Below are positions 47,858-52,969 of a stretch of 64,000 nt of DNA, one piece after another. Location of the stretch: assembly GCA_000004985.1 (NCBI GenBank), contig GG738850.1. One strand, written 5' to 3'. The notes under the pieces were generated by a model, which was given only the letters and a program-made list of their open reading frames with translations, did not search any database and was not told the DNA's origin. Numbering within the stretch: position 1 is the first letter of the stretch; the number at the start of each line of letters is the position of its first letter. Position numbers and translations under genes: made by a program. The stretch is from Naegleria gruberi (Eukaryota).

Positions 47858-48772
47858 ATGCCTCTAGATTCAAAGCACGATTTTAGTCAACTCAAAAAGA
47901 AAATATATTATTTGAATGGGAAAATCAACAGAAGGAAATATTGGAGTAAAATTCGGACCACTCACATTAGGAACAATACATCTCAATATCGACGTTATAT
48001 GGTTGGTTTTACACTGTGCATGACTGTTCTGCTGGGAATCTTTTTCATCATGTTTGCAATGGCAGATTTGGCCTTAACGAAAATTTCAAACTGGTACAAC
48101 TTTACCTTCGTTCCTGTATGGTTGTTTTTCGTCTTTTTACTTGGTTGGATATTCTTCTATTCTGTGAGTGCTAACATATTGAAACAAAAGAGTGTATTGA
48201 TGATGATTGGACAGATTATGTTATATCTATTCATGCATGGTGCAGTTCTCTATTCAGCAGTGTTGTGTTTTCTTAATTTGGGCGTTCTACCAATCAAGTA
48301 CAATGAAATTAGTCAATCCTACATGTATACAATACCATGGGCTGCAATTCTTGCTCCATATTATATTGGATATTTAGTTGTGGTAGTGATATTTATCGCA
48401 TTATTATTTGAGAATAGAGATAAGTGGTTTAAGAATGGCCTGGCTATTGCCGTATTCTCAATACCTCAACTTGCCATCAGCTCAATAATCATGCTTAATT
48501 TTACATTGGAATATACCAGTTATTTTCCTGCCTATTATTCAATGATTCCCTCACTCATCCTCATTCTGTTATTGATGGGTGGTTTATTTATGGTGAAGAA
48601 TAAGCAATTGAGGATTGTTGGATGGACGGTTTTTTCGAGTTATTTTGTTAACATTTTTGTTGTGGGATTGTATAATTTGTTTGGGAGTTATGTCTGGTTT
48701 AGCTCACTGATTCCTCTCGTAATAGCTCAATCTTCCATAATATTTGTTTCTTCCAGAGAGTTCGATATCTAA
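47858..48772 (+). CDS. Multipass integral membrane protein (304 aa, ~7-8 predicted TM helices), function unknown
   Basis: Real ATG. Successive ~20-aa hydrophobic segments (MVGFTLCMTVLLGIFFIMFAMA, FVPVWLFFVFLLGWIFFYSV, and others). Confidence 0.45.
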   Translation: MPLDSKHDFSQLKKKIYYLNGKINRRKYWSKIRTTHIRNNTSQYRRYMVGFTLCMTVLLGIFFIMFAMADLALTKISNWYNFTFVPVWLFFVFLLGWIFFYSVSANILKQKSVLMMIGQIMLYLFMHGAVLYSAVLCFLNLGVLPIKYNEISQSYMYTIPWAAILAPYYIGYLVVVVIFIALLFENRDKWFKNGLAIAVFSIPQLAISSIIMLNFTLEYTSYFPAYYSMIPSLILILLLMGGLFMVKNKQLRIVGWTVFSSYFVNIFVVGLYNLFGSYVWFSSLIPLVIAQSSIIFVSSREFDI

Positions 48773-49254: not shown

Positions 49255-50163
49255 ATGAAAGTATTGCCAATCAATGATTCTTTAATCATTCAACAAGGTT
49301 CCCTCGAGAAGGAATCATCAACAAACGTGCAAAAACATTCAGCCAGTGTTCGTAAGGCCATTAACAATAACAATACCTCCTCATACAAGCTGGAAGATAA
49401 TGAGTTGGAATTTAACTTGTTTCGCTCGGGGAGAGGATGCTGTCTTGATGGATTGTGTTCTATTAAGAGTGTTATTCTCTCATTCTTAATTGTCTCTCTA
49501 CTCTTGACATGTGCTGTGATTTGGGCTGTACTGATGGTGCTCATCTCACAGGAGGTGAATATAACGATGGGCATTGCTTCGCTGGTTGTTTGGTGCACGT
49601 GTATTGTTTCGGTAATTGTCTTTGGTGTGGTATCCTCTGTGGTGGTCTATTATTTGATAAGGAAACCTATGAGAGAGCTAACCAGACAACTCTTCACAAT
49701 GAAATCATTGAGATTCGACTCGGTTATCCAGCTCTCCTCCATAATGTATGAATTTATTCCCCTCTTCAGGATCTTCTTAGAGATGAACAATTTAATGAAG
49801 GAGATTAGACCATTCATTCCAGAATCTATTACCAGATCTTCAGAGTATGAAACTGAGAGTAATAACAGTTCAGACAATCAGGAGCAACAGAAGGAAATTC
49901 AAATGATGGCCATGAGAATGTCACTTAAAACATCAAATTCTATTGCTCAATTGGGTAAAGCTCCATCAACAGCTCTGATCCAAAATTCCCTCAAGTCTGT
50001 AAATTCTGTGGCCAAATTGAAGAGAGCCATGTCGAAAATGAGGAAATCAATGGAAGGAACTGGATCAGAAGGAGCAAGTTTCCAATCCAAAGACGGCGTG
50101 GAGCAACAGCAACATCTGCAGGTTTCACACCTCAAATCACAACCAATTTGGGTCTTGGATTGA
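49255..50163 (+). CDS. N-terminal part of a membrane-anchored signalling protein: 2 TM helices plus a cytoplasmic helical region. It is probably the same gene as the next feature.
   Basis: Real ATG. TM1 is VILSFLIVSLLLTCAVIWAVLMVL and TM2 is MGIASLVVWCTCIVSVIVFGVVSSVVVYYLI. The frame ends 15 nt inside the start of the next ORF, which is in another frame. Confidence 0.45.
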   Translation: MKVLPINDSLIIQQGSLEKESSTNVQKHSASVRKAINNNNTSSYKLEDNELEFNLFRSGRGCCLDGLCSIKSVILSFLIVSLLLTCAVIWAVLMVLISQEVNITMGIASLVVWCTCIVSVIVFGVVSSVVVYYLIRKPMRELTRQLFTMKSLRFDSVIQLSSIMYEFIPLFRIFLEMNNLMKEIRPFIPESITRSSEYETESNNSSDNQEQQKEIQMMAMRMSLKTSNSIAQLGKAPSTALIQNSLKSVNSVAKLKRAMSKMRKSMEGTGSEGASFQSKDGVEQQQHLQVSHLKSQPIWVLD

Positions 50164-51065
50164 ATTCACACATTACCACCATTATTGTCATTCAATTCAG
50201 AAACTTTGATGGCAAGTGTTATCCAAACACATCCGATCTCGTCTCTGTATTCACCCTCTTGTTCCAGAAGGTTCAGAGTGCCAGTAGACAATTCAAAGGA
50301 AGATGCTCTATCATTACTCCAAAGGTTTTGATGATTAGTTTTGAGGTGGGAAAGAATGTCGAGAGAAATGCCCTATTATGTGCACTTCAATTGGAGAAAC
50401 AAATGCAAGCAATTAATTCACAACTTTGTGAACAAGTTAATCTCCCACCTATTCAGTTTGGTATTGGAATTTCAAGATCTGAATGTTTGATTGGTAATAT
50501 TGGAACGGCTGCTGTTAGATTTTCTGCTCTGATTGGAGCTTGTTCCAGTAATGCATTGAGATTATCATGTTTGTGTGCCTATTTGGGAACTTCCATCTTG
50601 ACAGATGAATCTCTCATGTTGGCACTTCAGAGAGGATTCATAACGAGACCTGTACATTTTATTAGAAAGACATCGATATTTGATGGTGAGGTGTTGAGCT
50701 TGGAAGATGGTGATGACGACAATAAGCAAACCATTTATCAACTACTCGGAGAATCCAAACTTCAAGATGATGAATGGCTCTACGAATTGCAGCAACACGA
50801 AAACAATAACAAGTACAAGGAATTCGATAGAGCTTTTGATTTACTTCGAGTTGGAAGTGTAGATTCTAAATTGTTGGCAGAAATTTGTGATGTATTTGGT
50901 TCTTATCTGAGTAAATATCCTGAAGACAGAGTTGTCTCACTCCTATACACGCAACTGACAGAATTATCCAAGCTAGATGCCAAAGACGTGGAGAAGGCAG
51001 TTAGATCTTTCAGTTTGGAAAAGACAGACGTTCCACTCCATACTGATCCTTCTTTTATATTGTAA
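50148..51065 (+). CDS. Class III nucleotidyl-cyclase homology domain (adenylyl/guanylyl cyclase-like), apparently catalytically degenerate. In a different frame from the upstream TM exon.
   Basis: ITTIIVIQFRNFDG aligns with the VTILFSDIVGFT block. KGRCSIITPKVLMISFEV aligns with HCLRIKILGDCYYCV. IQFGIGISRSECLIGNIGTAAVRFSALIGACSSNALRLS aligns with LRIGIHSGPVVAGVVG..PRY.LFGDTVNTASRM. Several metal- and substrate-binding residues are substituted. There is no in-frame ATG before the domain, and no phase-compatible GT..AG joins the two frames without deleting conserved domain sequence. Confidence 0.4.
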   Translation: MGLGLNSHITTIIVIQFRNFDGKCYPNTSDLVSVFTLLFQKVQSASRQFKGRCSIITPKVLMISFEVGKNVERNALLCALQLEKQMQAINSQLCEQVNLPPIQFGIGISRSECLIGNIGTAAVRFSALIGACSSNALRLSCLCAYLGTSILTDESLMLALQRGFITRPVHFIRKTSIFDGEVLSLEDGDDDNKQTIYQLLGESKLQDDEWLYELQQHENNNKYKEFDRAFDLLRVGSVDSKLLAEICDVFGSYLSKYPEDRVVSLLYTQLTELSKLDAKDVEKAVRSFSLEKTDVPLHTDPSFIL

Positions 51066-51444: not shown

Positions 51445-52969
51445 ATGAAACTGATCCAATTGGTGATTGCTGTCTGTATGATAGCTTGTATAGTTCTTTC
51501 CTCTCACACTGTTTCACCACAAGAAGTGAGAGACAAACACTTGAAGGTATGCTTTTGTCAATTATTGTATATTGAATAACGAACTTTGGTTTCAATACTA
51601 ATAGGGTGTTGTTATCCATCAACCACCATTCGTATTTATCGATAGAAACACAACAGATCCCTCTCAAAGATACACTGGTTTTTCAATTGACTTGATTCAA
51701 ACTCTAGTTTCCAAAATGTCAAATGTTTCCATTGAATTTTATGAAGTTCCTGATGGTACCTTTGGCAGTCCATCAACAACAAGTGGAAACTGGACAGGAA
51801 CTATTGGTGAATTAATGACTGGTCGTGCAGATGTCATGGTCGGCCCTTTGACAATTACTCAACTAAGACATCAAGTCATTGATTTCACAACTAGTTTCTT
51901 TGATGTTGGTCTTTCCATTTTAACAACTAAACAAGGAGAAGAATCCAACCTATTCTCCTTCTTGTTACCATTCTCATGGGAGGTTTGGATTTTGATATTT
52001 GCCAGTGCCTTGATTGTTGCCTTATTGACTTGGTTTTTTGATCATGTTTCTCCATATGGACATTCGAAACAAGATGATGATTCAAAGAATGAATTGGATT
52101 TTAGTGGTTCTTTAATCAATGCTTGTATGACCATTTCTGGTCAAGATGGTAATCCAGGTAAAAGTTGGTCAACCAGAGTAATGCTACTCGGTTACTTTCT
52201 CTTCGTCATGATTATCCTCTCCACATACACAGCCAACTTGGCAGCTGTCCTCACCACAAAAGTTCAATCCACAAGAGTAACTGGTCTCTCTGATATCAGA
52301 ACTTATGGTTTCAAGTTTGCTGTGGCCAAGAATTCAGCACCTGCATCCTTCATCTCCTCTAGTGAGGAAATGGCAGATATCAAAAAGAACATGGTTCTAT
52401 ACGATTCTCTGGACGATTGTATCAAGGCACTCAGAGAAGGTCAAGTCGATGCTCTGATATGGGTTTCTTCCATTCTCGAATATATGGCCAACCAGCCACC
52501 TTGTGATACCTTAATCGTTGGTGATTTGTTTAATCCTGGTAATTATGGACTGCCATTTGCGAAGGGAAATTGGATGATCGGACATTTCTCTTCAATTCTC
52601 TTGTCGATGAGAGAAAGTGGACTTGTGGAAAAGTTAAAGAAAAAGTGGTGGATTGAGAAGGGAAGTTGTTCATTGGTTGCCTCATCACAGGAAGCATCTG
52701 GAGTGAAGATTCAAGACTTGGGAGGTATCTTTTTGATTTTGGCTGGTTTTATATTTGTTGGTGGTTTGATTTTGATATTCGAATTGGTGTATAGAGCTAT
52801 CTATGATAAGACGAAAAATAGAACTAAACATTTAAAGTATTTAAATAGATTCTTGGGAGGTGAGAAACATCAAGAAAGTGATAAAGAAGAACAAGAATTA
52901 AAGACAACCAATATTGCTGCTTCCACTCAATCTCTGCAAACAGATGAAAACAAAATTATCAATCAATAA
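51445..52969 (+). CDS. Ionotropic glutamate receptor (iGluR)-like ligand-gated channel lacking an amino-terminal domain: signal peptide, S1, M1, pore loop, M3 (SYTANLAA), S2, M4. Two exons, approximately 51445..51546 and 51605..52969.
   Basis: Exon 1 is MKLIQLVIAVCMIACIVLSSHTVSPQEVRDKHLK (donor GTATGC, 58-nt intron, ACTAATAG). S1 is GNWTGTIGELMTGRADVMVGPLTITQLRHQVIDFTTSFFDVGLSIL. M1 is WEVWILIFASALIVALLTWFF. The M3 gate motif is ILSTYTANLAAVLTT. M4 is IFLILAGFIFVGGLILIF. Confidence 0.75.

Follow-up and report, generated by a model that had tools for sequence, protein, structure and literature searches.

We found that positions 49255 to 51065 of a 64,000-nucleotide stretch of Naegleria gruberi DNA (contig GG738850.1; the window) probably hold a single gene for a membrane-tethered pseudo-cyclase of about 603 residues, with a -1 nt frame break in its linker. 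The gene suggests that Naegleria and its relatives have a family of membrane-tethered dead cyclase-homology domains (CHDs) that is maintained by selection.

Gene structure and annotation of the locus

The present annotation splits the locus into two neighbouring "predicted proteins", XP_002681311.1 (302 aa) and XP_002681312.1 (220 aa), whose locus tags, NAEGRDRAFT_63221 and NAEGRDRAFT_63222, are adjacent. The first model corresponds to ORF1 and the second to the C-terminal part of ORF2, each with 100% identity. An earlier note on this DNA had described an N-terminal module with two transmembrane (TM) helices followed by a CHD in another frame, and both were found where it had placed them, in frames 1 and 3. 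The gene contains the following features.

49255-51065, + strand: whole gene, stop codon included
49255-50163, + strand: ORF1, frame 1, 302 aa
49255-49467, + strand: start codon and cytosolic N-terminal region, aa 1-71
49468-49545, + strand: TM1, aa 72-97 (Kyte-Doolittle scan)
49546-49566, + strand: outer loop of 7 residues, SQEVNIT
49567-49659, + strand: TM2, aa 105-135 (Kyte-Doolittle scan)
49660-49827, + strand: HAMP-like juxtamembrane segment (RKPMREL...IRPFIPES)
49828-50147, + strand: low-complexity, length-variable linker of about 107 residues, in frame 1 to about 50097 and in frame 3 from about 50100
49959 to the stop at 51063-51065, + strand: open stretch of frame 3 that contains the CHD
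50095-50100 (GGCGTGGA), + strand: best estimate of the frame break, net -1 nt (tblastn frames and codon-usage switch-point)
50148-50756, + strand: class III CHD (LGLGLNS...IYQLLGES), from profile searches, the AlphaFold model and Foldseek
50161-50163, + strand: frame-1 stop after the break
50757-51062, + strand: C-terminal helical domain, with the DDEWLYE motif from 50766 and then a TPR-like helix hairpin
51063-51065, + strand: stop codon TAA

When the two frames were combined, the reading ran through about 603 codons with no internal stop, in the order short cytosolic N-terminus, TM hairpin, HAMP-like segment, linker, CHD, and DDEWxYE motif with a TPR-like tail. The whole of this architecture was found in one unbroken frame in N. 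gruberi XP_002676245.1 (590 aa), in tandem genes of 637 aa and 574 aa in N. fowleri, in a 637-aa relative from N. lovaniensis, and in a metagenomic relative of 504 aa. The annotation, with its two models, would instead imply a small TM/HAMP-like protein beside an independent soluble CHD fragment. We consider this very unlikely, as ORF1 and frame 3 overlap by about 200 nt and each homologue is one polypeptide. Moreover, frame 3 opens at 49959 and reaches the CHD without an ATG. Its first ATG encodes the Met of VLMISF, 3' of strands β1-β3, so ORF2 alone cannot yield the whole domain. With its start at Met89 of ORF2, the annotated 220-aa model is missing β1-β3 together with most of α2. NAEGRDRAFT_63221 and NAEGRDRAFT_63222 should therefore be combined into one model or marked as a single frameshifted gene.

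The opening residues of the protein, MKVLPINDS, resemble the N-termini of its relatives (MRVVPLDES and MRVTPLPP). No extracellular sensor domain is present; some family members bear dCache, NIT or PnrA-like sensors, and others have only a TM hairpin, as here. The segment after TM2 agrees in position and motifs with a HAMP domain, a two-helix module of about 50 residues directly after the last TM helix. Across the superfamily, its starting Pro is near-invariant, and its Glu and the 'FhP' at its end are invariant. A profile of the segment matched the Af1503 HAMP end to end and in register at sub-significant values (E=0.1-1.6), and in-register matches to the Af1503 HAMP made up 11 of the 21 listed hits, all of them sub-significant. 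Pfam HAMP gave no match in the two ORFs or in the HAMP-like segment. The linker that follows is probably flexible.

Position and origin of the frame break

In tblastn, homology to intact relatives extended in frame 1 at least as far as 50019 and resumed in frame 3 at 50094-50121, which bounds the break to 50020-50118. At 50094-50140, the homology to the paralogue XP_002678099.1 was already in frame 3, and a scan for the switch point in codon usage had its maximum at about 50095. The site proposed in the earlier note, about 50120-50165, thus lies too far downstream.

Frames 1 and 3 could be joined by a short spliceosomal intron within the linker, which would leave the gene intact as assembled. 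The earlier note had argued that no phase-compatible GT..AG pair would do so without losing the start of the domain. This was incorrect. We found 154 GT..AG pairs with a length of 2 mod 3, and splicing at many linker-internal pairs would leave an open ORF with the CHD complete. Candidates include 49955-50121 (GTAAAG...TGCAG, 167 nt), 49999-50078, and 50031-50092. However, such pairs are to be expected by chance in AT-rich sequence, and the coding score of frame 1 was positive across 49950-50100. Frame 1 also aligned, weakly, to the linkers of relatives to at least 50019. Every intact relative has a continuous ORF in the linker, and the JGI gene models contain no such splice. An intron is therefore very improbable, and the note's view that splicing does not explain the break still holds, with none of the pairs supported as an intron.

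Two further mechanisms were rejected. For programmed -1 frameshifting, inspection of 50077-50118 revealed no X XXY YYZ slippery heptamer, and the relatives are read without any shift. Nuclear insertional RNA editing would be unprecedented and is unnecessary.

We then weighed whether the gene has been inactivated. The frame break was the only lesion found, and neither multiple lesions nor relaxed constraint was observed. At 104 sites that are otherwise invariant, the protein carries 5 private changes, all conservative; the paralogue XP_002678099.1 carries 4 at 101. An old pseudogene is excluded, because the 603 codons contain no stop and no sign of decay was found other than the break. A genuine and very recent unitary pseudogene, in which a real 1-nt deletion in the linker ends the protein early and the CHD is not made, is a possibility that we consider doubtful but substantial. 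The break is present in the assembly, the annotators built no single model, and loss of a single copy is plausible in a large paralogous family. Two other N. gruberi paralogue models, XP_002678099.1 and XP_002669460.1, are also incomplete, being N-terminally truncated at 516 aa and 218 aa, and these truncations could mean that decay is common in the subfamily. On the other side, no second lesion was found across the 603 codons, private changes at conserved sites are no more numerous and no less conservative than in the paralogue, and the lesion falls in the length-variable segment, where constraint is lowest. The one comparable break found elsewhere is in N. lovaniensis copy 2, of which C9374_000916 is an N-terminally truncated model. 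It falls in a C4 run, and the N. fowleri orthologue does not have it, which suggests that assembly slips occur in such genes. We judged a very recent inactivating mutation to be less likely than an assembly or base-call error or a haplotype-specific indel, and consider that the chances for such an artefact or indel are about even. A search of metagenomes for a second copy of the locus gave 158 pattern matches, of which 0 were confirmed, and a degenerate DNA pattern for VIQFRNFDG had 0 matches there.

A cyclase-homology domain without most of its catalytic residues

Homology of the domain to class III cyclases is visible only at the level of profiles or structure. Pfam Guanylate_cyc (PF00211) did not match the protein or its close relatives as single sequences, and only more distant superfamily members passed its threshold. 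With a profile of the close family, the top 12 matches in the PDB were all class III cyclases (2w01, E=4.5e-6), and a profile of 84 sequences matched CyaB (3r5g) over the full domain with E=5.5e-24. The AlphaFold model built with the 84 sequences had a pLDDT of 89.4 and a pTM of 0.86; it superseded a run with 5 sequences that was unusable (pLDDT 55.8). The predicted structure showed the cyclase-homology fold, a βαββαβ core with a β4-β5 arm, and its top Foldseek match was Cya2 (E=9.5e-12, TM 0.80).

In class III cyclases, the pair of metal-binding Asp residues sits in β1 and in the β2-β3 loop, and the base-specifying pair is Lys with Asp or Thr for ATP and Glu with Cys for GTP. The seven canonical catalytic positions were mapped by three concordant alignments. 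The roles of the residues were taken from PMC2576301.

Q34, 50193-50195, + strand: first metal-binding Asp position
I73, 50310-50312, + strand: base-specifying position
K77, 50322-50324, + strand: second metal-binding Asp position
G123, 50460-50462, + strand: β4 triphosphate Arg position, aligned to the Arg of CyaB 'EIRMGIN'
A145, 50526-50528, + strand: base-specifying position
S152, 50547-50549, + strand: ribose-orienting Asn position
R156, 50559-50561, + strand: transition-state Arg in α4, retained; Lys in two relatives

Six of the seven positions are replaced, as the earlier note had supposed for several of them, and the substitutes are conserved in the subfamily, where Gln34 and Lys77 are invariant. 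The catalytic residues, scored against class III cyclases as the note had proposed, were not intact, with only R156 kept. The note had also paired IQFRNFDG with FSDIVGFT in the first motif. The substitution was real, but the pairing was shifted by one residue; VIQFRNFD aligns with FSDIxGFT and places Gln at the metal Asp. Together with the fold, the profile homology and the constraint on the orthologues described below, these results strongly support a degenerate CHD, that is, a pseudo-cyclase.

Because these residues are missing, established class III enzymology would predict that the domain can synthesise neither cAMP nor cGMP, whether it pairs with itself or helps to complete a site in a heterodimer. 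Activity with non-canonical residues, as a competent cyclase or as the C2-like half of a heterodimer, would be compatible with the retained R156 and the GNxG turn, and a few distant superfamily members that keep D...GD (P0084, P0091, P0133) are potential partners. However, the domain lacks both the C1-like contribution (the two Asp and the β4 Arg) and the C2-like contribution (the base-specifying Lys/Asp and the Asn), so no composite site could be completed in any dimer, and we regard such an activity as extremely improbable.

The C-terminal domain contains an invariant Trp228 and a near-invariant Glu227 (84 superfamily sequences), and the AlphaFold model places helices at 228-304. The superfamily profile of this region identified a TPR-like helical repeat, with matches to the TPRs of YbgF (E=8.8e-6), CTPR3 (E=6.6e-5), and SRP72. 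Pfam TPR matched several superfamily members weakly and gave no match to the tail of this protein as a single sequence.

The receptor-like family and its meaning

The closest relatives, XP_002676245.1 (D2VHY8, 'Adenylate/Guanylate cyclase', 590 aa), FDP41_011864 of N. fowleri and C9374_000916 of N. lovaniensis, belong to the same subfamily and share 39-47% identity with the protein over its full length. They have the same architecture and the same dead-site signature, Q/I/K/G/A/S followed by R or K. Subfamily relatives are mostly single uninterrupted ORFs, whereas the window copy is split over two frames. FDP41_011864 and C9374_000916 are annotated as 'Guanylate cyclase domain-containing', and the names of the relatives are automatic or profile-based.

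A profile search at E<=1e-10 yielded 106 representatives. The receptor-type CHD-DEW/TPR family is discoban, with members in Naegleria, Willaertia, and Entosiphon, and the window protein carries its GLGL-β1, GNxG, F..RP, and DEWxYE blocks with a TM/HAMP-like segment upstream. The first metal site had no acidic residue in 79 of 87 full-domain relatives, a sample that is biased toward kin of the dead copy. Between the N. lovaniensis and N. fowleri orthologues, dN/dS of the CHD was 0.040, and the CHD was the most constrained part of the protein. The dead CHD is thus under strong purifying selection in the orthologues. Tentatively, and with slightly less than even confidence, we propose that in a receptor-like family of Discoba, mainly Heterolobosea (Naegleria and Willaertia), the class III CHD has become a non-catalytic signalling module with a DEW/TPR-like tail that is kept under strong purifying selection. 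Literature searches turned up no relevant work on pseudo-cyclases or on an analysis of catalytic residues in Naegleria.

Both bacteria and animals are already known to have pseudo-cyclase domains. The Rv3645 / Rv1319c type of Mycobacterium tuberculosis represents the bacterial membrane-anchored HAMP-CHD adenylyl cyclases. These enzymes, like P. aeruginosa CyaB (3r5g) and Synechocystis Cya2 (2w01), are active and keep all catalytic residues. In the bacterial HAMP-CHD cyclases, the HAMP is coupled directly to the CHD, whereas the window protein has the low-complexity linker of about 107 residues in between, no catalytic centre, and a DEW/TPR-like domain after the CHD. The non-catalytic CHD of 6yii, a P. 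aeruginosa 'class III adenylyl cyclase-like ATP-binding protein', is part of a bacterial transcription regulator that is soluble; the window protein is membrane-tethered and eukaryotic. Degenerate pseudo-sites also occur in C1/C2 of mammalian tmACs and in the α/β subunits of sGC. In these mammalian proteins the pseudo-site adjoins one intact site, whereas in the window protein no intact site is possible.

The CHD may act as a dimerising, membrane-held regulatory module that possibly binds nucleotides or partners, and the TPR-like tail may recruit partners. A dimer with a catalytically competent paralogue would be inactive, and the effect would be negative regulation.

Neither the merged annotation nor the dead-cyclase family overturns present understanding. 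The finding is mildly interesting rather than surprising, because the gene is a member of a large "dead cyclase" receptor family that selection maintains. Genome papers include proteins of this kind in their totals of cyclases, for example 'at least 81 cyclases' (PMC9928731). If the proposed reading is true, a sizeable share of the approximately 80-100 'adenylate/guanylate cyclases' in Naegleria genomes would make no cyclic nucleotides and would signal otherwise, for example by nucleotide sensing or partner recruitment. Should many of them be non-catalytic, the output mechanism of a large receptor family would still have to be discovered, and the capacity for cyclic-nucleotide signalling in these amoebae, among them the pathogen N. 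fowleri, would have been overestimated.

Gene structure and position of the frame break

The window is AT-rich (GC about 34%) and dense in long open reading frames (ORFs) with eukaryotic domains, including kinases, RCC1, RGS, a P-type ATPase and an iGluR-like channel. The features at the locus are as follows.

47858-48772, +, upstream neighbour ORF, 304 aa, looks multi-pass hydrophobic on reading
49255-50163, +, ORF1, frame 1, 302 aa
49468-49545, +, transmembrane (TM) segment 1, from hydrophobicity
49567-49659, +, TM segment 2, from hydrophobicity
49959 to TAA at 51063-51065, +, ORF2, open stretch in frame 3, from ORF scan
51692-52969, +, iGluR-domain ORF directly downstream (Lig_chan E=1.5e-25, Lig_chan-Glu_bd E=2.8e-20)

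The upstream neighbour had no Pfam match and, when its membership was checked, lay outside the cyclase-like family. The downstream ORF is listed with a TTG start, so its upstream exons or true start are probably missing.

One long hydrophobic stretch in ORF1 resolved into two TM segments joined by seven residues, SQEVNIT, and the cyclase-homology domain (CHD) lay in open frame 3, in agreement with an earlier note that described a two-TM module followed by a CHD in another frame. Frames 1 and 3 overlap by about 200 nt. ORF1 was 100% identical to N. gruberi XP_002681311.1 (NAEGRDRAFT_63221), and the last 220 residues of ORF2 were 100% identical to XP_002681312.1 (NAEGRDRAFT_63222); the published annotation thus consists of two adjacent 'predicted proteins'. 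However, two separate genes were ruled out. Starting from Met89 of ORF2, the 220-aa model omits β1-β3 and the greater part of α2, and frame 3 has no ATG ahead of the first strands of the CHD. Moreover, full-length relatives are encoded in a single frame: N. gruberi XP_002676245.1 (590 aa, annotated 'Adenylate/Guanylate cyclase'), an N. fowleri tandem pair (637 and 574 aa), an N. lovaniensis gene (637 aa) and a metagenomic protein (504 aa).

An intron in the low-complexity linker upstream of the CHD could also join frame 1 to frame 3. The earlier note had found no phase-compatible GT..AG that would spare the start of the domain, but we listed 154 phase-compatible pairs, many wholly inside the linker. 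However, the candidate introns would excise sequence that has a positive coding score and aligns weakly to the linkers of relatives, and every intact relative has a continuous ORF across this region. No pair was therefore credible, and an intron is very improbable.

In tblastn with four relatives, frame-1 homology reached at least 50019 and frame-3 homology ran onward from 50094-50121. A codon-usage log-odds model trained on 25 other ORFs of the window gave a positive frame-1 score throughout the linker and the best switch from frame 1 to frame 3 at about 50095. These results place the break within 50020-50118, upstream of the 50120-50165 proposed previously, and its net effect is one base lost (or two gained). 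The most likely site is 'GGCGTGGA' (50095-50102), and the reading after repair is ...SFQSKDG-x-GATATSAGFTPQITTNLGLGL.

Identity and catalytic residues of the cyclase-homology domain

Since Pfam PF00211 matched neither the window protein nor any close relative, the cyclase call made by eye needed testing. When a profile of six close relatives was searched against all PDB sequences, class III cyclases were the top 12 matches (Synechocystis Cya2, 2w01, E=4.5e-6). An 84-sequence profile matched P. aeruginosa CyaB over the whole domain (E=5.5e-24), and the class III assignment was thus upheld; the N-terminal part of this profile matched the dCache sensors found in chemoreceptors. When 1.84 billion representatives were searched exhaustively by profile, 1700 relatives passed E<=1e-3 and 106 passed the stricter E<=1e-10, with named relatives from N. 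gruberi, N. fowleri, N. lovaniensis, Willaertia magna and the euglenid Entosiphon. The structure model of 50094-51062 reached pLDDT 89.4 with 84 diverse relatives aligned, compared to an unusable 55.8 with a 5-sequence alignment, which shows that model quality for lineage-restricted families depends strongly on alignment depth.

Catalytic residues were mapped by three concordant alignments (HMMER to 2w01, HMMER to CyaB 3r5g, and hhalign to CyaB). The roles of the seven positions have been laid out for a eukaryotic guanylate cyclase (PMC2576301).

Residues at the catalytic positions (numbered in the translation of 50094-51062)
Metal Asp 1: Gln34
Base-specifying Lys/Glu: Ile73
Metal Asp 2: Lys77
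β4 triphosphate Arg: Gly123
Base-specifying Asp/Thr: Ala145
Ribose-orienting Asn: Ser152
Transition-state Arg: Arg156, retained

Six of the seven were replaced, which bears out the substitutions first read by eye. In a class III dimer, one subunit gives each active site its two Asp and its β4 Arg, and the other gives it the base-specifying residues, the Asn and the transition-state Arg. The window protein supplies neither set; from established enzymology, this predicts that the homodimer should be inactive and that a heterodimer site cannot be completed by it.

Conservation and state of this copy

The substituted residues were invariant across the subfamily. For the orthologue pair from N. lovaniensis and N. 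fowleri (dS ~1), dN/dS was 0.040 for the CHD, 0.067 for the C-terminal domain, 0.071 for the linker and 0.126 for the TM/HAMP-like part, so no other part of the protein is as constrained as the CHD. The window gene had no lesion besides the single frame break. At conserved sites, defined by agreement of four or more relatives, it had five private changes in 104 (R>K, V>I, V>I, A>S, D>E, all conservative), and the paralogue XP_002678099.1 had four in 101. These results indicate that the window gene was under constraint until very recently, if it is not still.

The sole analogous break open to inspection was in the second tandem copy of N. lovaniensis (L001:3601-5377, PYSW02000011.1), which is split over three frames and whose annotated model, C9374_000916 (458 aa), is consequently truncated at the N-terminus. 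One break, near L001:4124-4127, falls in a CCCC run within KEYIP/LFVIF, where a C is missing. Since the N. fowleri orthologue is intact (L003:7400-9124, 574 aa), this break appears to be an assembly error at the homopolymer, and genes of this family are thus subject to assembly slips. The region of the break in the window contains no long homopolymer but is richer in G+C than any other patch of the linker; Sanger band compression is a possible, speculative cause. We give an error or allele-specific indel about an even chance. A real, very young frameshift is plausible but somewhat doubtful, and other readings take the little that remains.

Two N. gruberi paralogue models are also N-terminally truncated: XP_002678099.1 (516 aa) begins right after TM2, and XP_002669460.1 (218 aa) shares its internal start Met with the window's 220-aa model. 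Similar frame breaks may be present at these two loci, or the models may simply be wrong.

The wider family and a proposed role

Conservation across the 84 sequences was highest at Gly134 and Gly137 of the GNxG turn and at Glu227 and Trp228 of the 'DEW' motif, which opens the C-terminal domain. The profile of this domain matched the TPR proteins YbgF (E=8.8e-6) and CTPR3 (E=6.6e-5). By position and motifs the juxtamembrane segment is tentatively a HAMP domain, as its end-to-end match to the Af1503 HAMP was weak (E ~0.1). In superfamily proteins P0010-P0152, the HAMP-like/CHD/DEW-TPR cassette is paired with varied extracellular sensors (dCache, NIT, PnrA-like binding protein, Ephrin-receptor-like Cys repeats). 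The first metal site was Asp in 4 and Glu in 4 of 87 full-domain relatives, counted among top matches and so biased towards relatives of the query. A few members keep D...GD, such as P0084 and P0091 (Logan-assembly proteins) and Entosiphon P0133, and these may be active.

The window protein is alike in layout to bacterial 2TM-HAMP-CHD adenylyl cyclases, but its catalytic residues place it outside them. It is a clear member of the Naegleria family annotated 'Adenylate/Guanylate cyclase', and its gene is a frame-broken copy of this annotated, expanded family, real but largely ordinary.

We propose that the protein would be a membrane-tethered pseudo-cyclase. Since the TM hairpin lacks a sensor loop and the low-complexity linker is long (about 107 residues) and variable in length, a membrane signal is unlikely to reach the CHD by rigid helix-to-helix transmission, and the N-terminal part is probably an anchor and dimerisation element. 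Head-to-tail dimerisation of the CHD is probably kept, and a nucleotide or a partner may occupy the remnant pocket, which has Arg156 kept and Lys77 in place of a metal ligand. Other proteins would be recruited through the TPR-like tail, and a competent paralogue paired with the window protein would form an inactive dimer.

Literature searches found no description of a catalytically dead yet conserved cyclase family in Naegleria. The modest addition made here is that the cyclase domain of this Naegleria family is predicted to be catalytically dead, yet is strongly conserved.
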